The position numbers and the translations under genes were made by a program. This document shows positions 1 to 24,777 of a stretch of DNA of 45,504 bases, piece by piece (the first letter of the stretch is position 1; every line of letters starts with the position of its first letter). The DNA is from Bacteroidales bacterium (lineage in GTDB: Bacteria; Bacteroidota; Bacteroidia; Bacteroidales; Azobacteroidaceae). Below the pieces are notes generated by a model, which saw only the letters and a program-made list of their open reading frames with translations, ran no database searches and was not told the origin of the DNA. The stretch is from contig JAVBLO010000087.1 of assembly GCA_031553415.1 (NCBI GenBank), forward strand, positions 1-45,504, given 5' to 3'.

Positions 1-203
1 ACGTCATCAATGGTAACGAACCGGTTCAATGTGCCGGAAAAGCCGTTACGGGTCACCATGTTGAGGTTGCCGTTGAGGTCGTATCCCAGCCTTTCGTTGT
101 AACCGCCATGTGCCACAGACCAATCCTCTCCTTCAAAATAAGTTGAGTTCTCCAACCGGTGCAAGCCGTCATAACGGAACGAATAGCCCCGTCTAACCGT
201 CGT
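1..203 (-). pseudogene. 5'-truncated duplicate of the Rhs core (paralog fragment continuing beyond the window start)
   Basis: Positions 1-203 match 3329-3531 of the intact rhs gene with only 4 mismatches (~98% identity). Minus-strand translation gives RGYSFRYDGLHRLENSTYFEGEDWSVAHGGYNERLGYDLNGNLNMVTRNGFSGTLNRFVTIDD, 2 substitutions versus the intact gene. Homology stops abruptly at 203, where the 175-bp repeat begins. No N-terminal part is present. Confidence 0.6.
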
Positions 204-375
204 TTGCTGTGCATTGCGCTCGGCAGAAGCTCTGCTTCTGTCGTTGCTAAAAGTAAATCTCCCGATTTATATATTTGTGAAGCGGAGCTTCACTTCTAAC
301 CCGACGAAGTTAGAAACTTCGCCGAGCGCGTACTCCATTAGCCTACATTGAGCAGGGGAAAATGTTAATAAACAA
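201..375. repeat. 175-bp structured repeat, copy A (direct repeat of 9721-9894)
   Basis: Aligns base-for-base with 9721-9894: ~90% identity over the first ~105 nt, ~65% over the remainder. It contains a 13-bp stem (224-236 GAAGCTCTGCTTC / 277-289 GAAGCGGAGCTTC) enclosing a nested 6-bp stem (TAAATC / GATTTA). Confidence 0.8.
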
Positions 376-425
376 CAAAAATACCCCTGAAACTTGCTTT
401 TTTAAACAGTATCTTGCTACAATTA

Positions 426-800
426 TTATTTGATTTCTTTTCTCGAACTTCTGAGCATTAACATTAACAATGTGGATAATAAAATATTTAAAATCGGTAC
501 TACAAGAAATATTACAGTCCAATTGTTTCCATGCGATTCAAGAACAAATAACACACAGAGAAAAATCAATGATACAACAGAGTACAATAATAATGAAATA
601 CTCAACAATAAAACAATTTTTCTATTCTTAAGCCACAATAAAAATGAAACAATTATAAGACAAATACTTAACACCAAGAAAGAGGACATTACATAATTGT
701 ACACCAGCCAAACTCTCAACTCATTCAGTAATAACAGAACACCTTGCAACAACCACCAAACGAATGAAATAACTATAATTTTGTCATTTAACCACTTCAT
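426..800 (-). CDS. small multi-TM membrane protein, putative immunity protein for the adjacent orphan Rhs-CT toxin
   Basis: 124-aa ORF, last gene of the minus-strand array, 5 bp downstream of the orphan toxin ORF. The product is strongly hydrophobic with about 3-4 predicted TM helices. The region is very AT-rich and low-complexity, so the ORF could be spurious; a competing 88-aa plus-strand ORF is less plausible. Confidence 0.35.
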   Translation of the reverse strand: MKWLNDKIIVISFVWWLLQGVLLLLNELRVWLVYNYVMSSFLVLSICLIIVSFLLWLKNRKIVLLLSISLLLYSVVSLIFLCVLFVLESHGNNWTVIFLVVPILNILLSTLLMLMLRSSRKEIK

Positions 801-805
801 GGATG

Positions 806-1405
806 TTATCTCTTTATGTAAATTCCATTTGAATTATTTGTCCTTATGGCTTTAAACGATTCACTTGGAAGCCAAGAGTTATAAACCTTAGGAGGGGTGG
901 AAATAAAAGCATCTGTTTCTCTTCTAGTTATTGATGTATTTATTCCTACCGCATTCAGAGACCTTTGAACAGTAGTGGCACAATTGTTCGAGATAATACT
1001 ATAATTTTCATTTGTACTGATATCAGTAAAGGTGCTTCTTATAATGTTATCTTGTTCTGGTGTTGTTGGCAAAATATATCCTTCTGTAAAACCGTAGTTA
1101 TTAACCTCATTATCTTTGACTTGTTGCTTATTTCCTTCCGCATTGTAAGTACTCTCTAAAAATTCTTGAGGACTGTTAAATGTTTTTTCTCCCATATCAT
1201 GGTATGATTTACCTCCAAGCATACCTCCGGTTGCATTATAAACCCAGTCTCCATTCATTGAATAATATTGCCATTTCCCAGCATCATTTTGAATTAGCAT
1301 AGCTGAATGTTCTCCCTCATTGAGATTAAGAACAGTCACGCTATCTCCCCTTAAATCGATATTCCGGATAGGGTTATTTGCACATTGTGTATATAACATT
1401 GCCAT
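806..1405 (-). CDS. orphan Rhs C-terminal toxin module (retains end-of-core motif; unknown toxin domain, possibly permuted papain-like His...Cys)
   Basis: N-terminus MAMLYTQCANNPIRNIDLRGD parallels the end of the intact Rhs core ...YVYCANNPVNLIDPDGM. The rest is unrelated to the main toxin tip. It contains GEHSAML ... NNCATTV, a His-then-Cys order reminiscent of LRAT/NlpC-P60 permuted papain folds. Composition is AT-rich. Confidence 0.6.
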   Translation of the reverse strand: MAMLYTQCANNPIRNIDLRGDSVTVLNLNEGEHSAMLIQNDAGKWQYYSMNGDWVYNATGGMLGGKSYHDMGEKTFNSPQEFLESTYNAEGNKQQVKDNEVNNYGFTEGYILPTTPEQDNIIRSTFTDISTNENYSIISNNCATTVQRSLNAVGINTSITRRETDAFISTPPKVYNSWLPSESFKAIRTNNSNGIYIKR

Positions 1406-1422
1406 ACAAACATAATCTCCAA

Positions 1423-1965
1423 TTATTCTATTATATTTTCAAACTGCACCGAACTTCCCAAATATCGAGGGGCAAAAACTGTATCAGGTCTCAAATTTAC
1501 CTCCAAATTTCCTAATTCATTGTAGTAAAAATAAATGGAACGAAATATAAATAATTCTGAAGAGTTTTTTATTATCCATCCATTAGTTAGTTTTATGCTG
1601 TCAGGTTCATTCTTAATAATCCATTGGCTTTTTTCGGATACTATCAATTCATCAATAGAAGAAACATAAAAAACACGTTTATCCAAAATATCAAAATAAA
1701 ATGTTGGATTACTTTCTTCTATGAGAGATTTATAGCCAGGACCCAATAAAAAACCTTGTCGAGTAGGAACTTTTTCATTTTGCTCAAGTCCTTGGGTTGA
1801 TTTTATGAAAAAAGTATTAAATTGTGGATGTTCTTCTATGTAAGTCCCGATTACATTCTTTACATCAGCATGTAAATTTAATTCTTTGCAAAATTTTCTT
1901 TCTTGCTTACATGAAACAGTCATGAGCATCCCTAATACAACAACAAAGGATATTAAATATTTCAT
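1423..1965 (-). CDS. lipoprotein, putative cognate immunity protein of the Rhs C-terminal toxin
   Basis: 180 aa. Lipoprotein signal peptide MKYLISFVVVLGMLMTVSC. Starts 4 bp after the rhs stop, the canonical toxin-immunity arrangement. AT-rich like the toxin tip. Confidence 0.6.
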   Translation of the reverse strand: MKYLISFVVVLGMLMTVSCKQERKFCKELNLHADVKNVIGTYIEEHPQFNTFFIKSTQGLEQNEKVPTRQGFLLGPGYKSLIEESNPTFYFDILDKRVFYVSSIDELIVSEKSQWIIKNEPDSIKLTNGWIIKNSSELFIFRSIYFYYNELGNLEVNLRPDTVFAPRYLGSSVQFENIIE

Positions 1966-1968
1966 AAT

Positions 1969-4900
1969 CTACTGCCCTATTGATGGATATGTTCTCAACC
2001 AAGGAACTAATAATGTTTTTCCTGATAACAAATTATCTCTACTTCCCAATCCAGGAATAGACCTAAATCCCTCTCCTTTTACAGACCAAAATACACCATG
2101 AACCTTTCCATCATGACCTATTGTCATAATTGGAAGTCCTCCCATTGCCCTAGAATGACCAACATCGCCTCCGCTCTTGCCTGTAAAAGATGGTGTAGCA
2201 TCCTTTGACGCATCTTGATGGGTATGTACATTCCCTGTAATCTTAAATGTTTCCCCATCCTTGGTTGTGAGTTTTCCATCTTTAACAGAATATTGATATT
2301 TGCTTGGACTTGCATCATCAGCTTTATTTTTATAATCAGGTATAACTAAAATATTTCCATTTGCTAATGGATATCCACTTTCTTCGATTTTCTTCTCTGT
2401 TGCTTGTGACCACATTCGATTATATGCATCCGTTTCATTAGTGAACATAATACTACCATCCTTTCTATATGTTCCCGTCCCATATTTTACTGTCTCCCCT
2501 GCATATTTTTGATTTTCGCCTAGTTTGGAATCTTTTGTAACATTGGGGTCGTATTGTAGTGAGCGGTTCTTTTTATCATCGTTATTTATCCAATACCAAT
2601 CCATGCCATCAGGATCTATTAGGTTCACTGGGTTATTCGCGCAATAAACATACGGACTTATGCTGTAATACTTTTCGCAAAGCGGGTCCATTGTAAGAAA
2701 GCCACCCAGCGGGGAATAATATCCCCTTGCCACGAAATCATACTGATCCAACCCGAACATCCTGTCCAGTTCCTTCCCCCCGAACTTGTAGGGCTGGAAT
2801 TCCCGGTCGTTACGCCTCGGGGATTCTGCCATTACCGAACCGAAAGGGTAATAGTTCGTCACCTGGAAAGTTGTGCCCCACATGTCGAACACAACCCGGT
2901 TGTTACCCAGATGGTCTTTCAGAAAAAAGGTATGGTCGCCTGTCCCGTCATACCGGCAATACCCCTCTTCCGTGAGTACCATCGTCAGGTCTTCCCCCTG
3001 GTAAACCTTGTTACCGCAATAGGTCTTTTCCGTTTCCAAATAATTGTTCCTGTAGTGGCCCATCCTCAGTTTCCTGCCCGAAGCGTCATACACGTAACGG
3101 ATGTCGTTCCCATTGGCAAAGGTAATCTTTTGCGGCAGGTTCAACAAATTATATTCTATGCTTGTGATCCCACGGTTCTTGTCGGATGTCATGTTCCCGT
3201 TGGTATCATAGGTGTATTCGACACTGCCCCCGTTCACGTCCCTGAATTCCATCAAATCGTTAGAAGTGCCGTTGGATGCCATGTCCACCACCTCCTGCAA
3301 CCGGTTACCGTTGCGTTGCACAACATATACGTCATCAATGGTAACGAACCGGTTCGATGTGCCCGAAAAGCCGTTACGGGTCACCATGTTGAGGTTGCCG
3401 TTGAGGTCGTATCCCAGCCTTTCGTTGTAACCGCCATGCGCCACAGACCAATCCTCTCCTTCAAAATAAATTGAGTTCTCCAACCGGTGCAAGCCGTCAT
3501 AACGGAACGAATAGCCCCGTTGAAGAGCGGGTTTGTCCGCCGATTTCCAGCGGATGGCGGAAATATTCCCCGAATAATATACCTTTCCCGAAGGGTCGGG
3601 GTTGTTCGTGTAGAACAACTCTTCTGTGAATTTCGGGGAGGAGATTTTCGTCTGCCAGCCACGGATATTGTAATCGTAACCGGTTGATTCGTTGTATACC
3701 TTTTTGGAGGCGATCCTTCCCCAACCGTCATAAGTATGCCGGGAGAGGGGTATTTCAGGGTTTCCCTGTCCCGGGTTCAATTCATGGTAGGTATTCAGCA
3801 CCCTGCCTGCCCGGTCGTAGGTATAGCGGTACAATTCCGACACCCCATAGGCAAATCCCCCCCCGTCATGGTCGAGGTGTCTTTTATGGGGCAGTCCTGT
3901 AAAGGTATACGATATGGTTTCCCTGTCGTATCCGTTTGTTATATTGCTGGATACGGCTTGCACCACCCGACCCTTGTCGTCATAATAGGAGGCGGACAGC
4001 AGGTAAGTCGAATAATCGTCGAACACCAGCGTCCGGCTCCCGGTCAGCAATCCCTTGGCGGCAACCGGATCGCCGTCCGTCCCATGCCTTTTGTCATTGA
4101 ATCCTGCGGGAAGCAGGTAATCGAGATGGGTATTCGAACGGAAATGGGTCGTCTGTTTGAACAGGTAGTTGTCATAGTAATTGGCAGTTAATAATTTGGC
4201 ATCGGTGAAAGAAACCCCGGAAACGGTGTAGCCCGTCCCCAGGAAATTGTCGCCGGAGTCGGCGGAGAACACAGCCTTCACCACCGCACCGGAGTGTATG
4301 ACCGGGTTTTTGCAGGTACCTTTAAGCACCATCCGACCGAACTCGTCGGGGATCGTGAAGGTATATTCCGACCTGCTACTCTGTACGCTTTCACGAAAGA
4401 TGATCAACCGGTCGGCCTTGTCGTATTGCATCGTCGTTCCGCCCTGTCCCGGAAGCTTTTTCGCAATACACCTTTTCCAGTCATCGTACGAATAGTAATA
4501 CACATATTTGTTGATGACATCGGAGGTGATGGTCCATGATGAGTTTGTATTGAGCAGGGAAGCCGCCATGGGAGGAATCACAAAGCGTAACAGGCCGAAA
4601 TCATCATAAACGTAATAAGTGTCGTGGTTCCGGTTTTGTGACACCTGCCTTGTCAGTAACAGCTGACCCTGCGTGTCCTTGAATTCATACGACTCCTCCC
4701 CGTCTTCCCCCGTGGTTTTGGTCACATAAAGGGTGTTGGATGCGTAGTTCCCTTCTTTCTTCAAGGTATGTGAGGGCAGTACCCGGTACAGGTTGCAGTT
4801 GAGCCGTGTGTCTGCCGATATGTTGAACAGGTATTCGGTTTTGACTGCCTTGCCGTTATCATGCCACTCCTGTCCCGGCCCGAACTGTTGCAGGACGCGC

Positions 4901-5282: not shown

Positions 5283-8200
5283 TTATTTTTGATAATGATA
5301 CTTATAAGTTTCTATCACCCGCCCGTCGTTGTCCTTCAGTTCCCGCAGCCTCAGGAAATCGTCATACTCGAAGGCTTGCCTGGCGCCTCCGGGGTTGGTG
5401 ATGGCTTTGAGTCCCACCAGCGGTTCATAAGAAAAGGAGGTGGCGACCGCCCTGGGCAACCCTGTTTGCAACAGGCCGTTGTCCAGGCTGTTGGGTGACG
5501 AGTTCACGGTGAATTGTTCTGGTGTCATGCCCAGGCATACGCCCACCTGTTCGTAAGTGGCCCCCTTGATTTCGGCCAAAGGGGAATTTACCAGTTTGTT
5601 CCACAGGTAAATAACCCTGATGGAATCATCCTGGGTAATATGCACCGGATTCCCGTAAGCATCATAGTTGTGGTATCGTATCCTCTCCCTTGGCGCAGCG
5701 CTGTTGGTTTGTGAGGATATTTTCCAGGGGAACACGCCCGTGGGGAACACCTTGTAGCCGGCATGCACGGTGGTTGCCATGCTGCCTTTCGTCACGGATT
5801 CTTTCAGCAGCGTCCCGATTCTCCAACGGCTATCGGACATCAACTGCTTCCGGGCAGTTTCTTCTTCACCGGACAATACCAGGTCGTGTGGATAGTAACG
5901 GCGGACATCCAGCTGTTTGCCGTCGCTGGCCGTCGTCCTGATACGGGTTGGATAGAGCAGCACTGGGTTATTGTATTCATACGAGGTTTCCGTTTCCAGG
6001 CTCTTTTTCCCCCGGGAGTCGAATTGGACACGGTATTCGTTGGATAGCCGGAGGCAGCCGCTGTAGATTTCGTAAGGGTGGTGTACAAGTTCCTCCAAAT
6101 AAGTCCTGCTAAAGCAAGCGGTTTCATCGGGGTCAGGGTCATATACTCGTGTTTTTTGTTCCACTTTCCCCACCGGTATGTCTTTCCTGTTATATGTGGA
6201 ATACCAATAATGCACACTATCTACAGGTACCAACACCCCATTGTCTACCTTGTAGTTGCTGCATGACACCAGCTTCCCTTTCAGCCAGTCCGCCTTGGGG
6301 TCCAAAGTGATGGAGGTTCCGGGAACCCTGTGAGTATTATACTCCAGGTCATAGTTGAGGCCGTATTGATACCTGGTCAACCCCGCTTTCTCCATCTCAT
6401 CTTCCGAATGGTAAACGTGTTTATATTCACTGACCCATTCATACAGCACAGGTGCACCTCCCGCATGGGACAGGTTGATGACGGGGGAAGAACTGTAAGT
6501 GCGTGAACGGAATTGGTCAAAATAATCCGCAGCATAATCTATAAACGCCCCCCCAATATAAAGTCTTTTCCATTTTACATACAAGTTTTCCCGTTCCACC
6601 ATATAATCATCGATGTCAGGTATTTTCCTGGGGATTCCATATCCGTTCCCATCCAATCCGTAGGAGAATTCCTTAAAGACATGCTGGAGATTGGTGTTGT
6701 CTATCTCCCTGATTTGATGTATCCTTAATCCCCCTGCCAGTTTTGGGGTGTCATGTTCATAATCATAATACCGGTTTGCCTGGTAGAAAAACATGGTTTC
6801 CCCTCCGGTGGGATAAATGATTTTGGTCAACACCCCGGCCTGCATGTATTCTTCATCGGGTTCTTTTGAGGCGCTTCCGATCGTTGTCATCCGGTGATAC
6901 CCCCACCCGCCGGGAAGTCCGACGCTTACCTCGGCCAGGGGGACGGCGCTTTGGCTGCCGTCATTGGCCGTACCGTTGTAATACCCCCAATGGTCGGTGT
7001 TTTTATCAATAACGGAGGGCATGGGGATTTGAGTGTTGTATTCAAACCGGTACCGTTCCTCCACTTTTCCCTGCCGGTCAAGGATTTGCAGGGAGTCGAG
7101 TTTATATCTTCCTACTCCACCCAATACCGGAAGGAAACAGTTCTGGAAAAACCGGATTTCGCGCACGGTGTTACCTGAATTGCCACAGACTTTGATGGAG
7201 TTCAGCATCCTGCCCCCATCTACTTTGTGTATGATTTCAAACTTGACAATTCCCGCAGAAAACCTGATCTCCTTCACTTTCCTCATTAAAACAGAATGGT
7301 TCGACAGGTAGTATCTCCCATCGGCAAGGTCAGCATGATCATTGTATTCCCGGAAAATGCTCTCATCCCCATCATGAAGTATTTGAAATATCTCGAAACA
7401 ATTGCTTATCCTGGTCTTCTTTACAGGGAGGAAATACGATACGGGTTCATGATTTGTATAAAGAAATTCATAAACCGGATGCTCTAATAATGTGACATAA
7501 TCCGTCTGGCAGAAAGTCGTTTCCCAAATCGGTTCGTGGTATGAAAAGGATATCTGCCTACCGCTTATCCCTGATCGCATCTTACTCGCTTTCCAGGCGG
7601 TTGAAACAGTTTGGTGGGGATTGGGGACATAGGTGGAAAGTTCGGAATTTTCATATGGGAACTCATAATGAATCCCTTTTTCATCAGTGATGTTGAAGTC
7701 CGGGTTGAGATTGAAATTGGAAATTATTTTCAATGGCTCATAGGGATGAGGCACTATGATGGCCGTATCCCGGGTCCGGGGTTGCCTGCTATAGTAAAAG
7801 GAGCCTGTCTTGTCTGCCAGTTTGTAATGGAAGTCGTCAGGTTCTTCATCTTCCAGGCCGTCAACTATTCTCAACAAGTAGAGGTTTTCATGTTCATTAT
7901 AGCCTAAATTTTGAGAATTTGTCCTCAAATATCCCCTATCGTCGGCTACCCCATTGATATTACTAGAAATGAACGGCTCAGCATTCAGCGTCCAGCCCAA
8001 TCCGACCCACCCGTTGGGCTCGTTCACCTTGATTCCGGAAGAATGGTAGCTCAAGGTGATGGGAAGCTTTAAATCGCCATCCTGTATTTCGTAAAGGGGG
8101 ATTTCTATCCGGACAAGCCCCGTGCCGTAATTCACCGGGTAATTGATATACTTTGCCAGTGAAGCCGCTTCGGGGGAAACAGGTGTAATCCTCGGAAAAT

Positions 8201-8378
8201 CGGTTGTTAACTGTGGTTGGGTGGAAGATGATCTGAGCATCATCCGGGTCGTGTCATGGGGAAACGGGACCAGGGAATCGATGCTTGTGAATACAACTTG
8301 CGCCTGTGTGTTCAAAAGAATGAAACACGGGAGCAATGCAAGGATAGTTTTCATAATGAATATAAGTCTGTTCGTCAT
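5283..8378 (-). CDS. SpvB/TcB-like protein with Sec signal peptide, C-terminal YD repeats (B-component-like partner of the Rhs core)
   Basis: 1031 aa. Likely true start is the internal MKTILALLPCFILLNTQAQ (signal peptide). The SpvB-domain hallmark PVNYGTGLVRIEIPLYEIQDGDLKLPITLSYHSSGIKVNEPNGWVGLGWTLN compares with TcB's LSLPLPIS...FTLNYNSG...GLGWD. It ends with YD-repeat-like ...FEYDDFLRLRELKDNDGRVIETYKYHY. Its stop lies 11 nt upstream of the rhs ATG, in a different frame. Confidence 0.75.
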   Translation of the reverse strand: MTNRLIFIMKTILALLPCFILLNTQAQVVFTSIDSLVPFPHDTTRMMLRSSSTQPQLTTDFPRITPVSPEAASLAKYINYPVNYGTGLVRIEIPLYEIQDGDLKLPITLSYHSSGIKVNEPNGWVGLGWTLNAEPFISSNINGVADDRGYLRTNSQNLGYNEHENLYLLRIVDGLEDEEPDDFHYKLADKTGSFYYSRQPRTRDTAIIVPHPYEPLKIISNFNLNPDFNITDEKGIHYEFPYENSELSTYVPNPHQTVSTAWKASKMRSGISGRQISFSYHEPIWETTFCQTDYVTLLEHPVYEFLYTNHEPVSYFLPVKKTRISNCFEIFQILHDGDESIFREYNDHADLADGRYYLSNHSVLMRKVKEIRFSAGIVKFEIIHKVDGGRMLNSIKVCGNSGNTVREIRFFQNCFLPVLGGVGRYKLDSLQILDRQGKVEERYRFEYNTQIPMPSVIDKNTDHWGYYNGTANDGSQSAVPLAEVSVGLPGGWGYHRMTTIGSASKEPDEEYMQAGVLTKIIYPTGGETMFFYQANRYYDYEHDTPKLAGGLRIHQIREIDNTNLQHVFKEFSYGLDGNGYGIPRKIPDIDDYMVERENLYVKWKRLYIGGAFIDYAADYFDQFRSRTYSSSPVINLSHAGGAPVLYEWVSEYKHVYHSEDEMEKAGLTRYQYGLNYDLEYNTHRVPGTSITLDPKADWLKGKLVSCSNYKVDNGVLVPVDSVHYWYSTYNRKDIPVGKVEQKTRVYDPDPDETACFSRTYLEELVHHPYEIYSGCLRLSNEYRVQFDSRGKKSLETETSYEYNNPVLLYPTRIRTTASDGKQLDVRRYYPHDLVLSGEEETARKQLMSDSRWRIGTLLKESVTKGSMATTVHAGYKVFPTGVFPWKISSQTNSAAPRERIRYHNYDAYGNPVHITQDDSIRVIYLWNKLVNSPLAEIKGATYEQVGVCLGMTPEQFTVNSSPNSLDNGLLQTGLPRAVATSFSYEPLVGLKAITNPGGARQAFEYDDFLRLRELKDNDGRVIETYKYHYQK

Positions 8379-8400
8379 ATCGGATTCTTGTATGGATTCG

Positions 8401-9519
8401 TTAATGTATTTTCAAGATTTTCGCCCCGACAGGATAGTCATCGAACCACATATTGAGGACATATTCGCCCGGAATAAATGGGGACATGGGGATTGACAGG
8501 TGATGGACGCCCGCAGCCAGGGCTCCGTAACTCCGTTGCCACAAAATCTTTCCCATCCGGTCACCCAACTGCATCCTGACCTGCCCGGTTCCAGGCATGT
8601 AAATCTCCGCTTCAAGGTTCGTGACCACGGGATTGGGATAGAAATTATATGTCAGGCCAGCCCAGGGACCTTCCGCACCGCTTACCCCCAAGGAAGGGTC
8701 TTCCCGGACAGACAGGTTTTCGACGTCTTCCACCGGGTAAACATGTTTCTTTGGTGGATAAAAGAAGGAGACTTCCTCAGGAAGAACAGTCTCATCATAT
8801 TGTGTCGTGGTGTTGCGTACGGTCTCAAAAATGGGGTAGCGGTATCCTTTTGCATACCAGCGGTATGTTTCGGTTTCATGTATCGGTAAGAGGGATAAGG
8901 CCCTGTCGATACTGTCGGAAGAAACAATGCTGTCAACCGTATCCCGACCGGCAAATGTGATGGGTCGTGACGTATCGGCCGTTTTCACGACAGTTCGCAC
9001 CCGTATCACGTGATGCAAGGTGTCCTTACCGGGAAGGATAAGCATCCCGAGTGCATCGGCATGGAAGGATAAAGTTCCCATTGAAGTGGTTTTTAACCGG
9101 TCGCAATATTTCCCCTTACCGGAAAAATAGCCATGTCCATAATCGCCATAACGGACAGGAAATTTCATTAACAACGCAGGTTGCCGGTATCTGAGCAATG
9201 TGGAGGCATTCTCAAATCCCCAGAATAACAGGGAATCTCCCGACAGGCAATAGTAATAGGAAGTTTCCCTTTCGGTTCCCACAACCAAAGAATCGTTTAA
9301 TGCATGGTAAGTGAGTTTGTACTCTTCTTCGGTTACCTTCAGCCGGCTGAAGTCCCAAAGTACATTCTCTCCCGAACGGCCGGGATCTTTGTACTCTACC
9401 TGTTGCCTGGTGATTTCATCACCTGCCCGGTACATGTTGTGCTTGTTTTGCAAGCTGTGTTGGGCAAACAAAGGAAATAACCCGGCAATGGAAAGGAATA
9501 ACGTGAGTTTTGTTTTCAT
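8401..9519 (-). CDS. secreted protein with T9SS C-terminal sorting domain, first gene of the Rhs operon-like array
   Basis: 372 aa. Signal peptide MKTKLTLFLSIAGLFPLFAQ. The C-terminal ~80 aa, ...FYPNPVVTNLEAEIYMPGTGQVRMQLGDRMGKILWQ...PGEYVLNMWFDDYPVGAKILKIH, fit the Por/T9SS CTD pattern (YPNP ... GxYxL ... KIxK). The N-terminal domain is unrecognised. Confidence 0.7.
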   Translation of the reverse strand: MKTKLTLFLSIAGLFPLFAQHSLQNKHNMYRAGDEITRQQVEYKDPGRSGENVLWDFSRLKVTEEEYKLTYHALNDSLVVGTERETSYYYCLSGDSLLFWGFENASTLLRYRQPALLMKFPVRYGDYGHGYFSGKGKYCDRLKTTSMGTLSFHADALGMLILPGKDTLHHVIRVRTVVKTADTSRPITFAGRDTVDSIVSSDSIDRALSLLPIHETETYRWYAKGYRYPIFETVRNTTTQYDETVLPEEVSFFYPPKKHVYPVEDVENLSVREDPSLGVSGAEGPWAGLTYNFYPNPVVTNLEAEIYMPGTGQVRMQLGDRMGKILWQRSYGALAAGVHHLSIPMSPFIPGEYVLNMWFDDYPVGAKILKIH

Positions 9520-9720
9520 AACACCATCTTAAAATTAAATAATAGTTTTATAAATTAACGTGAAACAGGTATTTTTTAATAAAAACAAAGAAAACTCACA
9601 ATTGTTTAATAAAAATATATGTTATTTAGCATAAAAATGAAAAAATGACTATCCTGTGATTATGGGTACGGAGGCAGTCATAACGTTTCTTAGGAAGCGA
9701 TGAGCCCCTGTTCGCCGCAG

Positions 9721-9894
9721 TCTGCTGTGCGTTGCGCTCGGCAAAAGCTCTGCTTTTGTCGTTGTTAAAAGTAAATCTCCTGATTTACATACCTGTTGAA
9801 GCAGAGCTTCACTTCTAACTCGACATAGTGAAAGACATTATGCCGAACGCTATACTATCAGACTATGCTCAACAGGGGGTTACTGTAATAAATG
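9721..9894. repeat. 175-bp structured repeat, copy B
   Basis: Direct repeat of 201-375. It is preceded at about 9650-9720 by a degenerate remnant of the same rhs-core sequence that precedes copy A (gtcataacg...gcccc). The outer stem is conserved, with compensatory changes relative to copy A. Confidence 0.8.
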
Positions 9895-10015: not shown

Positions 10016-10519
10016 GTGGCTTTAAGCCACTGTATTACAAGTATGGCATCCCACTTAAGAAAAAGGTCAGATGCTAATACTTATGCCAAACAATACAGGA
10101 CATCAAGATCTGATTGTAAAAACTGCAAATTGCGACAAGAATGCATAGGAAAACGTGTCCATAAGTCTCTGGAAGACACTTTGGATAAACCTTATTATGA
10201 GAGAATGTACAAAAGGGTTAATACAAAGACGGGAGCAAAGATGATGAGAGTAAGGGCAGCTACAGTGGAACCGGTATTAGGAACATTACTCCATTTTGTT
10301 GGAATGAAGAAAGTTTATACCAAAGGGATTGATTTGGCGAACAAACATGTTCTGTTGGCTTCTACTGCTTATAATGTCAAGAAACTATTAAAGTTCAAGG
10401 GAATAGACAGTGGGATTAAATCAGTACTGAATGCTTGTATTAAAGGTAAAGATGGAATTCTTATCGTTATCACAGACTTAGCTGAACGGGGGAACTACAA
10501 TCTCACTGTTTATAATGAA
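10016..10519 (+). mobile_element. IS1182/IS5-like transposase, 5'-truncated C-terminal remnant
   Basis: The ORF (193 aa as listed) has the CKNCKLRQEC Cys motif and ...TVEPVLGTLLHFVGMKKVYTKGIDLANKHVLLASTAYNVKKLLKF, typical of the C-terminus of IS1182-family DDE transposases. The N-terminal ~250 aa, including the catalytic region, are absent. It is immediately right of repeat copy B. Confidence 0.6.
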
Positions 10520-10592
10520 GTCGGGGTACAAAGGTCTTGTAGTCGGAGTACAAAACATATGTACTCCGACTACAAGACCTTTGTACCCCGAC
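10520..10592. repeat. perfect palindrome: 32-bp arms (GTCGGGGTACAAAGGTCTTGTAGTCGGAGTAC) with a ~9-nt loop, at the 3' end of the transposase remnant
   Basis: Direct inspection: 10520-10551 is the exact reverse complement of 10561-10592. The listed ORF reads through it, which is probably artefactual. Confidence 0.85.
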
Positions 10593-10745
10593 TATAGAAA
10601 TTAAATGCTCTTAGCATCTGCTTCAAAAAGTAACTGATTCGGTTTTGTAAGACATAGAAATTATCAATTAACTTTGTAACCTGAATTTACTTTCCTGTGT
10701 CATATCTGTACAAACTAATTATTAACATTTTTATAAATACAGATT

Positions 10746-17500: not shown

Positions 17501-19699
17501 TTATAAATCTTCTCGCTTCCATGTTTTCAGCCGTTCCAAGTGAGTAAAAAGAGTTGTATCTGAGCCTTCAAGATAAACAATAGCATTGGGGTCAATATCT
17601 AAAAAAGCATCGGGGTCAATTATTATTCTACCTGAGCCTTTTATATATAATTTACCTCCATCCATGATTTTCAGGGTACTTCCCTTTTTGATTCTTAATT
17701 CGGCATTGGGATTTAGTTCATAAATGCTGTTTTTTTCAATTATGAGAGAGCTTCCCCGTTTCACTTTGACAATAGAATTTGTTTCTTGTTTAAAGTAAGA
17801 ATTTTCCCTGCAGTGAAATGCGGTTGGGTTGATAAAATTTCCTTCATCGTTATGGGTATGCCTGTTAGGAGTTCCACCTTTATCAATCGACAAGGCAATT
17901 CCTTCATTGATAACAATATCCGGCCTGTTATCTTGTGTTATATCCGGCAAATAAATAGTTCCGCAATAACGGATATTATTATTTATTATCACATCATTGA
18001 AAGTAATTTTTATTTTGGCATTGCCTTCTGCATCATAATCCAGGATTTTAACGGAAATGCCATTCAGGACAAATGGATTCAACCTGAATTCTTTTTCGTT
18101 ATATATAGGAACATTTACCAGTCCGGGGTTTGAATCCATAGACAATTTTTGATTTTTTTTGAAAGTAATATCATGTCCTAAAAAATCATAAGTAAATTCA
18201 TTATCTTTCATCCTGACAAAGCATCCTTCATTTTTTTTGCCGGGACGAATGCTGTTATAATGTGTATCTAAAGAAATAATCCCGTTGGAATCAAAATCAG
18301 CACGGATAACTTCAGCCCTGCTTTGTCCGGCAATAGGATTCGGCTCCACCTCTTTGAAACTGTATAATTTATGTTTCCTCCTGAAACAAGGATCTATAAA
18401 TGAAAGCCCGAATTCATAATCATGGCTGCCTTCCGGATGCAGGCATTGTATTCCATTGGTAGTTCCTATATTTCCCCAAACGAGATGAGGTTTTGTTTTA
18501 TCATCTTGTATGCTTTCAATATAAGCCACTATCCCCCATGAGTGTTGAGGTATTTCATTTTTACAGCCATCATATAAAATAGAACTTTTATCAAAAATAG
18601 ATTTACCCTGATGGTTTTCCAACCATAAATAATGATTTTTAATCCCATTGCCGGGTATTTTTATCCTGATTATGTCGCCGGTCGTCATAAAATCCCTTAG
18701 AGTATATTCTCCGGAAGCATTTAAATCAGCTTCCTTTTTAATATCTGCATTTTCCCCATTGGCCTTAATACTATTAATCCAATCGAGATACCATTTTTCC
18801 CAACCTAATACACACAAAAACGGGGAGAAATTTAACGACATCATACCCCACCCCAGATTACCATAAAAATAATCACCTACGAGTTCATTGGCATAAGCAT
18901 AATGAGGACATTCAAAAATACTGTGTGCAATTTCATGGATGAATAAATGGAAAAAGTCTACGGAGGCCGAAGTCTGGGTAAATCCGCTTTGGTCGAAAAT
19001 ATAGCCGTTGAAGTCTATACCTGTTGTTCCATCCAATATGGCATATCCTCCATTGGAACCTCCCCAAGCGTCTATGTTATGTACAGGTTTTTGAATCATC
19101 TTATTGTGACTCCGGTATATGACAATAATGTAATCCGGTTTTTTATCAGGAGAATACAAACTGGCATCTTTTCTGTAAGAAGGCCTGTTTTCCCTCAGGT
19201 CGTATCTTGACCAATCAAAACCGGGATTTTCTTCTTTCAGCTTTTCGATTACCCTTCTGTTCAGTTGGCTCCAACTGCTGGCTCCACTTGCATCAATATT
19301 TATCCTTTTGGGATATACATCAGCAATCAACCTGAATTTTGAATGCGACATCTGGTAATAAAAGTATGATACATTTTTATCCTGATTTGCAAGAGGGCGT
19401 TCTGAAAAATCAGAAAAATCAGACAAAAAAGTGGATTTATCCTTTAATTTATCAGGAATAGCATCAGGCTCTTTACTCCAGCCTTGCATTTCAAAATTAT
19501 CGTATGGTTCACCGAATCCAGCGCAGATCACCAAAACTCTGAGGTCTCCTTTCGGAGTTAGAACATTTCCATATCCGGAATAAAATCCGGTTTTTCCCAC
19601 CTTTGAATCGGTATTTTGATTATAGTACGCATTCAATTGTTCTGTTTCAATGGTTAGGGCGGCAATTAATAATTGCCAGTAAAGGTTTAAGCTTTTCAT
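17501..19699 (-). CDS. large secreted protein with HExxH zinc-metallopeptidase motif
   Basis: 732 aa. Contains FIHEIAHSIFECPHY. The C-terminal third is rich in beta-helix-like repeats (IKKGSTLKIMDGGKLYIKGSGRIIID...). Confidence 0.5.
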   Translation of the reverse strand: MKSLNLYWQLLIAALTIETEQLNAYYNQNTDSKVGKTGFYSGYGNVLTPKGDLRVLVICAGFGEPYDNFEMQGWSKEPDAIPDKLKDKSTFLSDFSDFSERPLANQDKNVSYFYYQMSHSKFRLIADVYPKRINIDASGASSWSQLNRRVIEKLKEENPGFDWSRYDLRENRPSYRKDASLYSPDKKPDYIIVIYRSHNKMIQKPVHNIDAWGGSNGGYAILDGTTGIDFNGYIFDQSGFTQTSASVDFFHLFIHEIAHSIFECPHYAYANELVGDYFYGNLGWGMMSLNFSPFLCVLGWEKWYLDWINSIKANGENADIKKEADLNASGEYTLRDFMTTGDIIRIKIPGNGIKNHYLWLENHQGKSIFDKSSILYDGCKNEIPQHSWGIVAYIESIQDDKTKPHLVWGNIGTTNGIQCLHPEGSHDYEFGLSFIDPCFRRKHKLYSFKEVEPNPIAGQSRAEVIRADFDSNGIISLDTHYNSIRPGKKNEGCFVRMKDNEFTYDFLGHDITFKKNQKLSMDSNPGLVNVPIYNEKEFRLNPFVLNGISVKILDYDAEGNAKIKITFNDVIINNNIRYCGTIYLPDITQDNRPDIVINEGIALSIDKGGTPNRHTHNDEGNFINPTAFHCRENSYFKQETNSIVKVKRGSSLIIEKNSIYELNPNAELRIKKGSTLKIMDGGKLYIKGSGRIIIDPDAFLDIDPNAIVYLEGSDTTLFTHLERLKTWKREDL

Positions 19700-19837
19700 A
19701 GTAAGTTGATTTTTGAAATATGTTTTCTCTCTCTCTATAAAGGAAACAAGGACTTACAGAAAAAGGTTTTATCAATAATGGTTAATTAATTCTAAAAACA
19801 GATATTCAAAACGGGCACGATTTGAACCGGCTAAAAT

Positions 19838-22800
19838 TTATTTCTTCAATGCTTTCATAATTCCTTCCAAACCTTCGTTGAATTGTGCTAATTGTGCGAC
19901 AATTTGTCCAACCTGGTTATTCTTATCAATACCAGCTAACTTGTTGTTTTTAAGGAATATTTCTTTGATTGTTTCCCAGCGTTTCCGGTCGGAATCGGTA
20001 AATAATCCGGCAATTTCCTTTATTTTCAGCAAGTTGGCTTCATTTTCGGAAGTCAGGGTTTGTGCTTCACTTTCGTAGTGGGTCATGATCAACTCATTGA
20101 TCTCGGTTATGTTCATTAATGGAACAATGAGGCTAACCATTTTATTCATATCGCGGTATGAGCCTTGCAATTTAAACGCTGGTTCGGTGCGATACGCTTC
20201 CTGCATGGCAGCGCTGGTTATGTATGTCTGGTTTACTTTCAATACGAAATTGCGAACCAATAACGCATTTTTAACTACAGCAATAAAATCATCTACATCC
20301 TGCTGGATATGGTTTCCTTCCAGGTCGGGAAAGTTTCCGCTGTTGGTTTCAATAAAGTCTACCAGATTGTAAAAATCATTGAAACTTTTGGAGGCAATTT
20401 TTTGTAAATACGGATTTTCTACAATTGCATTTTCCAATAAACTGAGTTTGAAAAGATTTTCCGAGCTGCCGATTACATCGCCCAGGTTATAAATATCAGC
20501 ACGGTTGGCCAACATGTCAGGAATCTGAAATTTTTCCCCGCTTTCGGTATATGGATTTCCTGCCATGATTACACAGAAACGTTTTCCCCGTAAATCGTAA
20601 GTTTTGCTTTCTCCTTCGAAAATGCCGTCCATTTTACGTTGTCCATCAGCTAAGGAAATAAATTTTTGCAGAAATTCAGCGCTGCAATGTTGTATATCGT
20701 CCAGATACAACATAACGTTATCGGCCATCTCGAATGCGAGGTTGATTTTCTTCAATTCTTCACGCGCACCTGAAGTTTTTGCTTCAGCAGGGTCGATAGA
20801 AGTAATGGAATGCCCAATAGTTGGTCCGTTGATTTTAACGAAATTCAATCCCATGGTTTTGGACAGGTATTCCATTAAAGTTGTTTTCCCATATCCCGGG
20901 GGAGAAACCAGCAACAACATTCCCATGCGGGCGGTACGTTTGTTTTCGCCTGCGGTTCCGAGTTGTTTGGAGAGATTGGCTCCAATCAACGGAAAATATA
21001 TTTCATTGATTAATTTGTTGCGGACAAAAGAAGTCAGCACACGCGGTTTTAATTCGTTCAACTTAAGCGTTTTCTTGTATTTTTCAACCAGGTTTTCTTT
21101 TACTTCGCTGAACTCGTTGAATTCAGGAACACTGACTTCTGAGAAATGTGATAACCGCTTGATAAACGAATGATAATCCAAAGTATAAACACCATTAACG
21201 ATAACTGCATGGTTTCCTTTCAGGCTTTTAATTTCGGTTTTATCCGGAGCTTTAAGAAGTTCATAAGTTTGTTCTCCGAATAGTAACAAACAGGTCGCTT
21301 CTTCTGCGTACTTCTTTTCTTCCGAATAGTTTTTGGACGCATCTAAGAATGACTGCATCCAGTTGGAAGCGAGATAGAACCGCTCTACCCAATCAAAAGA
21401 TTCATCTTGAATATCTTTTTCAAAATCATTTAAGAATCCGGTTTTCGTAGCATAAGCCAAAAACGCCAACCGGAGTTTTTCTGCCTGACCGCTTTTGGTA
21501 AAAGTTGGAGATACTGCAAACTCCCGGAATAAATAATCTGCAATTTGTTGCGAAGTAACATTTGAAAAAACCAATGTAGTATTCCACTGTTCGAACAGTG
21601 TTTGAATCCGTTCAATAACATAACGGAAATTTTCTGAGCTGGGGAATACTTTCAACACAGTGCTGGCAGCAATAATCAGTTTGTTGAGTTTTGCTTTTTC
21701 ATCTTCTTCCAAACTATTCCAGAAAAGTTGTGCAACAACACGGAGATGTGGATGGAAAGACAGCATATCCAAGTGCTGATACAACAAATCTAGTACTTCA
21801 TAAATGCGTAAAGCATCATAATCGTGCACTCCTTTCAGGTAAGATTCGGAGTAATTTTGTTCTGCTTTTCGGGTGATATATTCTTTCGGATTGAATTTTT
21901 TACTCGTTTGTTTGGCTAAAAATGTTTGGTAAGCAAGGTATTCGGCACGATAAACAACCTTGTTTTCCGAAAGAATTTCCTGTTCCCAGATGCACCTGTA
22001 ATGGTTGATTTTTTCATTATCCAGGAGTTGGTAAAAACTTGTTCCCGTCAGGTGGTAATATAATCGGTCGTTTTTCCTGACAACGGTCAAATCTAACGGC
22101 TGTTTGCTAACAGTGAATTTGTAAGTACCCAGACTGATGATTTGTTCTCCATCTACAAACAATTCCGTGCGGTCTTTCAATATGCGTAAAGCATCTTCCA
22201 ATGAAGTTTTAAGGCAGTTTTCGAGATTTTCAGCTTTCGAAACATCTCCCAATAATTTGAGTTCTTCAACTAATTTCCGGACTTTATCAATCATCAGGTC
22301 AGTTGAAAAGAAAGCTTGTATTTCTTCTTTGGTCTTGAATGATTGGGCTTTGTTTTCGATATTCTTCAACACCCGGAGCCCGATTTGTTCGAGCGAAGAA
22401 GTCCGGTGGTTGATTTGTTCCTGTAATTGCGCCTTTTTACCATCAAATGCTTTGGTAATTTCGTCACGTTTGTCTGCAATTTTTTCGACAAATTCGTTGA
22501 AATCGGCGAATTTACTTTCCAATTCTTCGACCAGAACACTTATTTTGGTAAAATATTCATCACATTTCCCAGGAGAAGTTGCCAGTTCCAGGTAATTAAC
22601 AATGCTTTGTTCCAACAAGGTAAGTTGTGCATGGAATTCAGCCACGGATTCCCCGGTTTTCAAAGAGTCGGTTTTCCTCTTTAACCGGGCGCGCACTTCA
22701 TTCAACGATGCGAATATCAGTGAAATTTTTTCGACAATGCGGGTAGCCTGGGTTTTATCTTCAATTTTCAGGCTGTTCAAGATATCTATTAAAAGCTCAA

Positions 22801-24670
22801 GTTCGGATGAAATCAGTTTGCAGTTTTCATCTATTTTATTGGCATCAATAACTTTGGTAACTGTTTCAATCTGTTCTTTTTCGATTGCAACTTTTTCTTC
22901 ATAAGGAACCAAAGCCTCATCTTTCAACAGAAACTCAACTGTTTTATCCGAAAGTTTTTCATTGGTTTCGGCCAGTTGTTTTTTAAGTTCCTCAATTTTC
23001 TCCGAATCAATATACTTTATATTGCCTTTCTCAATGACTTCGCCTTGTAACTTCCGGGTTTCGGCCAACAATTTTACCAGACTATCGAGATTATCATATC
23101 TATTATTCTTGTAACTGAATAATAAACTTTCAATCTTTTCGATTGTTTCATCAAGCTGTTGGGATGCATATTTTTTTTGTGTCTGTACTTTGGCAAACTC
23201 ATCGATAGCAGTTTCTGCAATGCTTTTTATGTGTTTCAGTGGTTCGGAGAGGCAATATGTTTCCTTATCTGCAATCCAGAAAAAAGCATCAATAGTATCG
23301 TTCGCTTTTTTGGCTATATCAACATAAAGTCCGTCGTAAGAATCTTCCTTATTGATTAATTGTATAATTTCGTGGCATTCAGCCATTGCCTTTACAATAT
23401 CTTTGTTTCCGATTTTATAGAGTTTATTATCCTTTTTTCCCGTATTTTCGGTAAACTGGCGTTGGTAAGGCGTTTGCCAGATTTGCACCTGGTGATACTT
23501 GGTTGCGTCTTGTTCGGTTTTAAAATAAATCAACCGTCCATCGGCATATAATGTAAAACCGCCACATATAATTGGTGTTTCCACTTGTTGTTTGATGATG
23601 TTGTATGACATCAACACGTATGTATGTGTATCGCCTTGATAGAAAAGGTAAAGGAAATCTTCTCCGTTTCCGGATAAAATCCGGCGCACGAATTCCATAT
23701 TATGTAAGTCACTTTCGAATATTTTATATTCTCCTGTTTGCAGGTAATAACCGTTGGGGAAAATGATTCCCTGATTATCAGGCAACAAAATTCCGGCATT
23801 CAACAACATGTGAATATTGACTACTTCCTTGGTGCGTGTATTGAAAATATATGAACGGAAATCTTCTTGGTAAGGCTTGATTTTAACTGCTAACAAATTG
23901 CCTAAATCGGCATAATAATATTCTGCATCATCTAATTGCTGGTCTTTATTCTCAACTGCTTCGGCATAAATTCCCTTTCCTGTCCTGGTATTGTCTTCAA
24001 TTTTGAATGTAATATCTCCGCCAACAGCCTCGATAAAAACTTTATTCATGATTGAAACATGCGGGTGAAGTCCGAGGCGGCGGTCTTCCAATGTGGTTTT
24101 ATTCCATTGGAACTCATGTTGGGATGGTTTGACTACTTCATGGATGCTCCGGTCGTCGATGTAAACCAGTTTGTTGTCTTTCATCAACCACTTGAAAGCT
24201 TTGGCGTCGGCAATGGTTTTTCCTGTCTGGAAAATCATATACAAGTAATTATCGGTTCTCCTGAAACGGGAGAAAATGGCATTCCGGTAATATTTGTAAA
24301 GATTGTTATAATCGTTTACAAAATCCGGGTTATTGATAAGATCTAATGGTTGAGGATTGAAATGGTTATCTTCAAATTTATAAATACTGAAAACATCGCT
24401 GAGCTGGATATCCGACCGCAGGCCAAAATGGACATTGTATGCAAAGATGCACAAATCGCCAATAACCATAATCCCCCTTGCCACACAATTGTTTTCGGTA
24501 GCAATGCGCTGGTTGGCTATCAGGGAAAAATCAACCGAACTGAAAACTTCTTTGCGCGATTCGTTCAGTTGGTTAAGGCGTTTATTAAGCTCGTCTTTTT
24601 GCGCTTGAAGGCGTTTTTTTATGATTTCGTAGGTGCCGGAATCGAGGGTTTCTATATTGGGTTGTTGCAT
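19838..24670 (-). CDS. giant (1610 aa) coiled-coil protein with C-terminal AAA+ (MoxR/dynein-type AAA_5) ATPase module; function unknown
   Basis: Walker A LLVSPPGYGKTTL and Walker B VMLYLDDIQH. VIMAGNPYTESGEKFQIPDMLANRAD matches the AAA_5 sensor region. About 700 aa of heptad-rich coiled-coil lie in the middle. The N-terminal ~450-aa domain is unrecognised. Confidence 0.8.
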   Translation of the reverse strand: MQQPNIETLDSGTYEIIKKRLQAQKDELNKRLNQLNESRKEVFSSVDFSLIANQRIATENNCVARGIMVIGDLCIFAYNVHFGLRSDIQLSDVFSIYKFEDNHFNPQPLDLINNPDFVNDYNNLYKYYRNAIFSRFRRTDNYLYMIFQTGKTIADAKAFKWLMKDNKLVYIDDRSIHEVVKPSQHEFQWNKTTLEDRRLGLHPHVSIMNKVFIEAVGGDITFKIEDNTRTGKGIYAEAVENKDQQLDDAEYYYADLGNLLAVKIKPYQEDFRSYIFNTRTKEVVNIHMLLNAGILLPDNQGIIFPNGYYLQTGEYKIFESDLHNMEFVRRILSGNGEDFLYLFYQGDTHTYVLMSYNIIKQQVETPIICGGFTLYADGRLIYFKTEQDATKYHQVQIWQTPYQRQFTENTGKKDNKLYKIGNKDIVKAMAECHEIIQLINKEDSYDGLYVDIAKKANDTIDAFFWIADKETYCLSEPLKHIKSIAETAIDEFAKVQTQKKYASQQLDETIEKIESLLFSYKNNRYDNLDSLVKLLAETRKLQGEVIEKGNIKYIDSEKIEELKKQLAETNEKLSDKTVEFLLKDEALVPYEEKVAIEKEQIETVTKVIDANKIDENCKLISSELELLIDILNSLKIEDKTQATRIVEKISLIFASLNEVRARLKRKTDSLKTGESVAEFHAQLTLLEQSIVNYLELATSPGKCDEYFTKISVLVEELESKFADFNEFVEKIADKRDEITKAFDGKKAQLQEQINHRTSSLEQIGLRVLKNIENKAQSFKTKEEIQAFFSTDLMIDKVRKLVEELKLLGDVSKAENLENCLKTSLEDALRILKDRTELFVDGEQIISLGTYKFTVSKQPLDLTVVRKNDRLYYHLTGTSFYQLLDNEKINHYRCIWEQEILSENKVVYRAEYLAYQTFLAKQTSKKFNPKEYITRKAEQNYSESYLKGVHDYDALRIYEVLDLLYQHLDMLSFHPHLRVVAQLFWNSLEEDEKAKLNKLIIAASTVLKVFPSSENFRYVIERIQTLFEQWNTTLVFSNVTSQQIADYLFREFAVSPTFTKSGQAEKLRLAFLAYATKTGFLNDFEKDIQDESFDWVERFYLASNWMQSFLDASKNYSEEKKYAEEATCLLLFGEQTYELLKAPDKTEIKSLKGNHAVIVNGVYTLDYHSFIKRLSHFSEVSVPEFNEFSEVKENLVEKYKKTLKLNELKPRVLTSFVRNKLINEIYFPLIGANLSKQLGTAGENKRTARMGMLLLVSPPGYGKTTLMEYLSKTMGLNFVKINGPTIGHSITSIDPAEAKTSGAREELKKINLAFEMADNVMLYLDDIQHCSAEFLQKFISLADGQRKMDGIFEGESKTYDLRGKRFCVIMAGNPYTESGEKFQIPDMLANRADIYNLGDVIGSSENLFKLSLLENAIVENPYLQKIASKSFNDFYNLVDFIETNSGNFPDLEGNHIQQDVDDFIAVVKNALLVRNFVLKVNQTYITSAAMQEAYRTEPAFKLQGSYRDMNKMVSLIVPLMNITEINELIMTHYESEAQTLTSENEANLLKIKEIAGLFTDSDRKRWETIKEIFLKNNKLAGIDKNNQVGQIVAQLAQFNEGLEGIMKALKK

Positions 24671-24777
24671 AGGTATTTATATAAAAAGAATTATCGGAAG
24701 TTATTAGAATTCAACCGGGAGTTACCGGAATAAATTCTCCTGATAAATTCCGATAACTTCTGATTAAATTCCAAAAA

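Follow-up and report, generated by a model that had tools for sequence, protein, structure and literature searches.

Results

Two copies of a palindromic element flank an Rhs toxin locus

The stretch of DNA analysed here (the window) is an entire contig of 45,504 nt from a Bacteroidales bacterium, towards one end of which an Rhs toxin locus lies between two copies, A and B, of an imperfectly palindromic element of ~185 bp (Table 1). Read along its minus strand, the locus passes from two operon genes through the main Rhs toxin gene and a set of small genes to copy A, beyond which lies an orphan piece of rhs core. Both copies flank this locus, and the remaining ~35 kb, made up of housekeeping DNA (purL, parC, pspA and others), has none; a 25-nt core pattern of the element likewise matches the window at these two places only, with 0 matches expected. 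The proteins of the window have their nearest relatives in Dysgonamonadaceae, Candidatus Ordinivivax, Azobacteroides, Symbiothrix and Bacteroides reticulotermitis, which are termite-gut lineages.

The initial annotation presented the pair as direct repeats with ~90% identity over the first ~105 nt and a recognisable relationship to the end. The repeat itself is confirmed at a somewhat lower identity: over the coordinates of that annotation, global alignment gives 86% for 201-305 versus 9721-9825, 62% for the remainder and 76.5% overall, and a repeat search returns 82% for 180-278 versus 9698-9796 and 83% for 278-317 versus 9797-9836. By the alignment of eight copies, the element spans about 187-363 and 9705-9883. 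The extended homology claimed for the right flanks is not significant in this AT-rich DNA. As elements, A and B are 73% identical, which is no closer than either is to copies of other samples, so they are not a recent duplicate pair. Copy A lies 185 nt from the contig end, whereas copy B is internal; within copy B begins a Logan unitig from the source sample, SRR23967709.

Table 1. Features of the toxin locus and its two flanking elements (CM, covariance model; T9SS, type IX secretion system)
Feature	Position	Strand	Remarks
5'-truncated orphan rhs-core fragment	1..192	-	Starts at the element boundary, runs off the contig end
Element copy A	~185..363	.	CM match, 173.8 bits; 8-copy alignment; pair counts
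Copy A, closing stem H1	216-223/322-329	plus	GCGCTCGG with CCGAGCGC
Copy A, hairpin H2	224-240	plus	Loop TCT
Copy A, spacer helix	241-252/293-304	plus	TCGTTGYTAAAA with its complement
Copy A, hairpin H3	253-270	plus	GTAAATC-TCCY-GATTTAY
Copy A, hairpin H4	278-292	plus	
Copy A, hairpin H5	305-321	plus	
Post-cassette motif AGCAAGATACTGTTT	404..418	-	Directly past the stop of the 124-aa gene, ahead of the element
Small genes (180, 199 and 124 aa) downstream of the Rhs toxin	426..1965	-	Putative immunity/cassette genes
Main Rhs toxin, 1100 aa	1969..5271	-	DUF6443 and RHS repeats (Pfam domains)
Upstream operon genes (1031 aa and 372 aa)	5283..9519	-	Order common to loci L023-L030
1031-aa protein	8378-5283	-	Operon gene
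372-aa protein, T9SS C-terminal-sorting family	9519-8401	-	Operon gene
Putative degenerate relic of the same rhs junction	9660..9702	-	RGSSLPKKRYDCL versus RGYSFRYDGL
Element copy B	~9703..9883	.	CM match, 172.3 bits
Copy B, H1	9734-9741/9843-9850		
Copy B, H2	9742-9758		
Copy B, H3	9771-9788		
Copy B, H4	9797-9811		
Copy B, H5	9824-9842		
DDE transposase C-terminal fragment (DDE_Tnp_1_6)	10016..10597	+	~130 nt outside copy B

The element belongs to a family with a conserved branched fold

Searches with short conserved patterns in one genome-collection scan and one metagenome scan, and then with a covariance model (CM R1) built from eight copies, recovered at least nine further copies in metagenome-assembled genomes (MAGs) of Dysgonamonadaceae and in metagenome contigs. 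Designated by locus, these are L002 (a Dysgonamonadaceae MAG), L004, L007 (two copies and one partial), L008, L012 (two copies) and L024/L025, together with a strongly diverged copy, L030, in another Dysgonamonadaceae MAG; L010 and L018 carry a half-element that has only the left block in common with the others. No match was found in E. coli genomes, plasmids or phages, and viral contigs gave either none or chance matches only. A covariance-model search of the window with Rfam 15 returned 0 families at gathering score and only chance matches of the miRNA type at E <= 10, a null result that covers IS605/IsrB omega-RNA-type and cis-regulatory families.

The copies are 179-190 nt long, open with CCCC(T/C)(C)GTT... 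and close with ...GGGG, the two ends pairing with each other as imperfect terminal inverted repeats that in L030 become a clean inverted repeat of 12 nt (CCCCTCGTTCGC / GCGAACAGGGGG). Every copy has a closing stem and four hairpins. On opposite strands both halves follow one plan, in which GCGCTCGG is succeeded by a TCT-loop hairpin, TCGT(T)GTTAAAA and a TCC(T)-loop hairpin, and the element is therefore a pseudo-two-fold palindrome. In the alignment of eight copies, paired cells make up 91%, as against 35-42% when the partners are slid by 1-3 columns, and six pairs are changed on both sides. When the diverged copies L030, L010, L007b and L024 are included, distinct stems number six among ten copies at H2, five among ten at H4 and eight among eleven at H5, and Watson-Crick cells outnumber all others by 324 to 24. 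The stems of H2 include CAGAAGC/GCTTCTG, CAAAAGC/GCTTTTG, CGAAGGC/GCCTTCG and CGGTGTT/AACACCG, and those of H4 TGAAGC, CAAAGC, AAGCG, GCAAGTC and GTCGTT, each with its complement. In the additional copies the stems are thus kept with compensatory changes. Sequence conservation is uneven: the left ~75 nt (alignment columns 24-99) hardly change from copy to copy, and the right half is variable.

The 13-bp outer stem with a nested hairpin that was initially proposed does appear in the minimum-free-energy fold of copy A, enclosing a hairpin of 6-7 bp, but it is an alternative conformer that the family does not conserve. Formed between H2 and H4, it meets one A.C mismatch and one G.U pair in copy B and finds no complementarity in L030, and the local hairpins are kept. 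The substitution between A and B that had been cited in favour of U-G pairing is a compensatory change from G-C to A-T inside a local hairpin. Over the five helices, in up to 11 copies, wobble-type (G.T) mismatches number 11 in the plus sense versus 7 in the minus sense, and fold z-scores run from -2 to -8 on both strands. The plus strand, once put forward as the functional RNA, is therefore not preferred by these mismatches, and their lack of strand bias fits DNA better than a single RNA strand.

A protein-coding interpretation was considered for the minus frame ...RFTF[SN]ND[KR]SRAFAERNAQQT..RG, which resembles a YD repeat, and was rejected, the frame being bounded by stops and having no start in most copies. 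Its residues vary freely where the stems co-vary (KSRAF / GVANT / EGWSL), which places the conservation at the level of nucleotides and structure, not of protein. Open reading frames (ORFs) that overlap the element are spurious and have no corresponding protein in the database.

Several loci show variation on the basic unit. The half-elements at L010 127-286 (+) and L018 158-391 (-), from other metagenomes, hold the invariant left block alone, with an H2 stem that is fully compensated and an ATG from which a short frame (MEIRRFTFSYDEGWSL...) opens; these two loci part exactly at the element boundary. At L007 ~1-170 (+), copy a adjoins part of an additional right arm (ACTACGCCGAGCGCTAAAC...), and three GGGCGGGTATAGTCCGAAA repeats ~60 nt apart come next. 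L024 and L025, two assemblies of one sample, are identical through a 66-aa cassette gene and, directly past its stop (from ~19997), continue into two different element variants; the split may reflect either a heterogeneous population or an assembly graph that branches at the repeat. Assemblies more generally break or branch at the element, and unitigs of the window's own sample break near both of its copies.

Most copies lie at cassette boundaries, and all share one orientation

Cassette boundaries in Rhs, toxin-immunity and toxin-antitoxin arrays hold nine of the 11 copies, so that an association with rhs or toxin loci extends beyond the window to most of the family. Together with the further copies and their compensated stems, this is the opposite of the refuting outcome named in the initial annotation. 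The cassettes themselves comprise Rhs C-terminal toxins with immunity genes, orphan toxins with immunity genes, and toxin-antitoxin pairs. Orientation relative to the neighbouring genes is the same in all 11 copies, representing eight independent loci (p about 0.008), and the element is placed 14-175 nt past a stop codon and 0-342 nt ahead of the next gene.

The order at copy A (Rhs gene, three small genes, element, orphan rhs) has counterparts in three loci: in L002 a Rhs C-terminal fragment and a 132-aa gene precede the element and a leucine-rich-repeat (LRR)/T9SS gene follows it; in L024 a Rhs gene and a 66-aa gene lead to an element at the contig end; and in L030 a Rhs gene, a 204-aa gene, an HNH orphan and an 89-aa gene are followed by the element, a 117-aa gene and more. 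In L007 a Tae4 toxin domain and a 137-aa gene stand between two elements, the Tae4 ORF opening at the first base past the element (Pfam Tae4, E = 1.6e-17), and in L012 a DUF2281/MazF pair is enclosed in the same way. A 5'-truncated toxin ORF that begins directly at the first base following the element was observed in two cases. The copy in L008 lies between signalling genes and glycyl-radical-enzyme genes. We also considered copy B as a conserved operon leader and rejected this, as homologous T9SS-Rhs operons have no element upstream.

A shorter motif, AGCAAG[AG]T[AT][ACT]TGTTT, occurs directly after the last cassette gene in three different genomes, at 404-418 (-) in the window, 20002-20016 in L024, and 10399-10413 and 12576-12590 in L042, with ~0.003 chance matches expected; it is more widely spread than the 185-bp element. 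In L024 and L042 it is followed by a T-run, a palindrome and an A-run (for example TTTTCGTAGTACGAAAA). At L042 12576-13863 this palindrome is interrupted and an IS110-family gene follows (DEDD_Tnp_IS110 and Transposase_20), in what looks like an IS110 insertion into that repeat. The element itself is absent from L042, and the left end of the IS110 there was dismissed as a homologue, giving neither a CM nor an Rfam signal.

The rhs-core stub and the element junctions

The initial annotation placed before copy A a 203-bp, 98%-identical duplicate of internal rhs core. The identity stands and the length is smaller: positions 1-192 match 3329-3520 at 98%, with four mismatches (at 28, 36, 111 and 142), and the homology ends at 192/193, which makes the duplicate 192 bp long. 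Minus-strand translations of the two segments are alike (...RGYSFRYDGLHRLENS...), the stub reading ...RG|YSFRYDGLHRLENSTYFEGEDW... in the rhs frame, and its homology to the main rhs gene ends inside a CCCCGT common to both. The four mismatches limit exact matches to at most 74 nt, which marks the stub as a separate paralogue or variant instead of an overlap of k-mers or contig ends. The segment 3329-3520 is the source or a paralogue of the stub, and 1-192, beyond which the contig ends, has the form of a classical orphan rhs module, a 5'-truncated core downstream of the main toxin-immunity genes. A diversity-generating-retroelement reading of the two segments as template and variable repeat was set aside by inspection, given their position in mid-core, their mere four mismatches and the absence of a reverse transcriptase.

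The degenerate version of the same rhs sequence described before copy B is plausible but weak. The left flank matches the rhs junction at 11 of 12 positions (GC[A/C]GTCATAACG) and at 9 of 11 beside the boundary, and its local score of 19 compares with 11.8 +/- 2.1 in dinucleotide shuffles, being reached by 12 of 2000 (p about 0.006); the flanks of six other copies score 10-14. When the flank is compared with the entire rhs gene, no significant match is found. A possible likeness of the element's left end to the rhs sequence past the junction, as if this were a secondary site, was rejected as no higher than background. Rhs-core DNA adjoins only the two window copies, the others being next to the Tae4 domain, the MazF pair, the LRR/T9SS gene, an immunity-like gene and the glycyl-radical-enzyme genes.

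Neighbouring genes and related arrays

The order found upstream of the Rhs gene in the window recurs in L023-L030, L032, L035 and L042, where a T9SS C-terminal-sorting protein (~375 aa) and a protein of ~1000-1200 aa precede a DUF6443-Rhs toxin, an arrangement that suggests a T9SS-linked Rhs delivery module. DUF6443 was mentioned nowhere in a full-text search of the available papers, and Pfam gave no family for the 124-, 199- and 180-aa genes of the window. Beyond copy B, the toxin locus has its outer edge at the DDE_Tnp_1_6 fragment, which probably does not belong to the element; within the 3' end of this fragment, 10519-10593 forms a perfect inverted repeat of 34 nt around a 7-nt loop. This fragment and the IS110-family gene of L042 are the only transposase-related ORFs, and neither shows homology to the element. 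A possible defence-type ATPase system lies elsewhere in the window, at 17501-26859 (-): three large neighbouring genes encode 732, 1610 and 693 aa, and the 1610-aa product has DUF3686, DUF7902 and AAA ATPase domains. In Dysgonomonas mossii (L031 8300-14000), ~ten small co-oriented genes follow a DUF6443-Rhs gene and have unrelated intergenic repeats of their own, a 59-nt unit present four times with a CTTCGGATTTGCAATCCGAAG hairpin and a ~160-nt unit present twice.

Discussion

Our tentative reading of these data is that the repeats are ~185-bp imperfect-palindrome DNA elements that mark cassette joints in polymorphic-toxin arrays and act as folded DNA in the joining and exchange of cassettes. 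The recombination or att-like role in cassette shuffling listed among the initial suggestions remains the best available account. The family is an undescribed one and, on this reading, specific to termite-gut-type Bacteroidales (relatives of Dysgonomonadaceae). Set against an RNA gene or an rhs-targeting transposon in particular, the element is probably a cassette-joining site. We envisage that cassettes would join, stack and exchange at the element in a folded or cruciform state, through a recombinase or else through homologous recombination of one copy with another, for which the rhs core would be a second homology arm. A circular module consisting of an rhs-core 3' part, toxin, immunity gene and element could enter a resident rhs gene in a Campbell-type event, upon which the displaced old rhs 3' half would stay behind as an orphan and the junction at copy A would be that between the element and rhs codon ~585. 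Toxin and immunity genes, then the element, then an rhs restart at codon ~585, with near-identity to the main gene and a join in CCCCGT, are the leftover expected of such an event. Copy B with its decayed stub would be an older instance of the same composite, the 73% identity between the copies indicating an old instance rather than a recent duplication.

Orphan rhs-CT/immunity modules reportedly lie downstream of the main rhs gene in Enterobacteria, and the arrangement at copy A is similar in that a 5'-truncated core copy, nearly identical to the main gene, follows the toxin-immunity pair. The rhs homology in those modules allows toxin switching by homologous recombination. We know of no structured repeat that bounds the enterobacterial modules, for which homologous stubs alone are known, whereas the orphan described here is flush with a conserved palindromic element.

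A number of observations weigh against a role in cassette joining. The sample amounts to ~11 copies, several of them related, and the copy at L008, possibly also that at L004, lies outside toxin contexts. Neither the window nor the neighbourhood of any copy yielded a recombinase, integrase or HUH transposase, most contigs being short or ending at the element, and no tyrosine recombinase turned up in the window or the loci, whose arrays are cut by contig ends. The element is least conserved at its ends, the proposed places of crossover, and the similarity of the element end to the rhs sequence beyond the junction is within chance. A function that depends on sequence, for instance protein binding, a promoter or an RNA, is suggested by the invariance of the internal block. 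In the Rhs arrays of D. mossii L031, L042, L023, L027 and L028 no diverged member of the family was detected, even with filters off, and several related Rhs arrays carry other repeats or nothing of the element.

The main rival, which we consider somewhat unlikely, is that the element works in transcription, either as a minus-strand intercistronic or 3'-untranslated structure (a stabiliser, terminator or insulator) or as a Bacteroidetes-type promoter for the promoterless downstream cassette. The co-orientation of all 11 copies with their flanking genes fits such a role equally well, as do the position between stop codon and next gene and the strongly conserved secondary structure. The near-invariant block is the half that faces the downstream cassette; this block contains TACTTTTA, a -7-like sequence that agrees with TAnnTTTG at seven of eight positions, and six of eight copies also have TTTG 22 nt upstream. 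The -33 TTTG is, however, missing in both window copies and the -7-like box in L030, and a start site inside the element would leave half of the closing stem out of the RNA. The wobble-type mismatches favour neither strand, Rfam offers no match even at the relaxed threshold, and in L024 the T-run, palindrome and A-run lie ahead of the element, so that read-through into it may be low. The truncated toxin ORFs at the exact boundary are left unexplained by either version. A selfish, non-autonomous repeat of the kind of a miniature inverted-repeat transposable element (MITE) or a REPIN, tolerated in recombination-prone toxin arrays and contributing passive homology only, is in our estimation unlikely, though it has the inverted-repeat termini (imperfect, and 12 nt long in L030), the wholly palindromic element, copies in unrelated contexts such as L008 and the assembly breaks in its favour, along with the IS110-family gene that interrupts the post-cassette palindrome in L042, albeit at a locus without the element. 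REP/BIME, REPIN, Neisseria NIME/dRS3 and Correia repeats are likewise intergenic palindromes found after genes; a REPIN consists of two inverted halves that form a long hairpin, and the Neisseria repeats separate silent toxin or pilin cassettes and promote their recombination. The element has no sequence similarity to any of these, is apparently low-copy and restricted to certain loci, and has pseudo-two-fold halves whose hairpin stems are not the same; the 45.5-kb contig has neither a RAYT (Y1 HUH) gene nor a cognate integrase. As a MITE it would lack target-site duplications, none being present in the flanks of nine copies, and the analysis turned up no related autonomous element. As A and B illustrate, the copies that share a locus are old and not the product of a recent burst, and random insertion predicts neither the strict orientation nor the cassette-boundary position. 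Uneven conservation together with compensatory substitutions points to selection on the structure and on the sequence block, which also counts against a selfish repeat.

The remaining explanations concern the window copies themselves, and both an rhs-core-targeting transposon and an assembly artefact are unlikely. That a site-specific element inserted twice independently at one rhs-core position seems very improbable to us. Both window copies do adjoin R-G-(Y/S)-S codons of the same YD repeat, with the join in the shared CCCCGT, and they are too diverged for recent duplicates. Against this, the upstream half of rhs is missing across either copy, so neither is a simple insertion; no other copy adjoins rhs-core DNA, the relic at B is marginally significant, and the rhs site is unremarkable as a match to the element end. 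The earlier idea of a mobile element that targets rhs cores is accordingly not borne out, given this restriction to the window copies and the lack of target-site duplication. We regard a chimeric join at the end of a MAG contig as the least probable explanation of all, even though the contig-edge position that had been flagged as a warning sign applies to copy A and the same-sample unitigs break near both copies. The stub and the internal rhs segment differ at four positions and share exact runs of at most 74 nt, copy B is internal, and the layout of an element after a Rhs cassette recurs in the independent assemblies L002, L024 and L030.

Cassette-boundary palindromic repeats are known, and the element is comparable to integron attC sites and to the repeats reported for Bacteroidales rAID arrays. 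Like attC sites, the copies are imperfect palindromes in which structure is conserved above stem sequence, with one site per cassette in a fixed orientation, and the cassettes are often small promoterless genes that include toxin-antitoxin pairs. IS110/IS1111-family elements target sites of the attC type. The differences are considerable: a regular-expression search of both ends on both strands found no R''/R' pair (RYYYAAC...GTTRRRY) in eight copies, the element measures 179-190 nt versus 55-141 nt for attC, and its fold is branched with four hairpins whereas attC is a single bulged hairpin. Its interior is conserved and its ends are variable, the reverse of attC, which adds to the points against a joining site, and no IntI was seen in arrays that are cut by contig ends. 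The rAID-1 arrays (Ross et al., 2019, bioRxiv 10.1101/471110; PMC12247911) are also from Bacteroidales and have intergenic repeats reported as 'integron-like'. They are defined by a 5' XerD-like recombinase gene, of which none is seen here on a contig that ends 185 nt beyond copy A, and they are set apart from rhs genes and contain immunity genes only. Dysgonomonas does not appear among the listed entries of the rAID-1 supplementary workbook (PMC12247911).

Rhs, contact-dependent inhibition and rAID-type arrays share the question of how orphan toxin and immunity modules come to be acquired, accumulated and swapped, and in the papers considered here the Bacteroidales rAID-array repeats have no mechanistic characterisation. 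The element described here is a defined, structure-conserved unit that stands exactly at cassette joints, with truncated toxin ORFs flush against it. More speculatively, and on balance doubtfully, it might by analogy be the recombination site of a new integron-like system for toxin/immunity modules, in which a recombinase would recognise the folded ~185-nt, four-hairpin DNA site, in function a counterpart of attC, and would excise circles of toxin fragment, immunity gene and site and insert them beside rhs genes. If true, such a system would account for the truncated toxin ORFs flush with the site and might provide a link to the rAID-array repeats. Even if the element were merely a lineage-specific palindromic repeat, it would account for the assembly breaks at toxin loci in these Bacteroidales.

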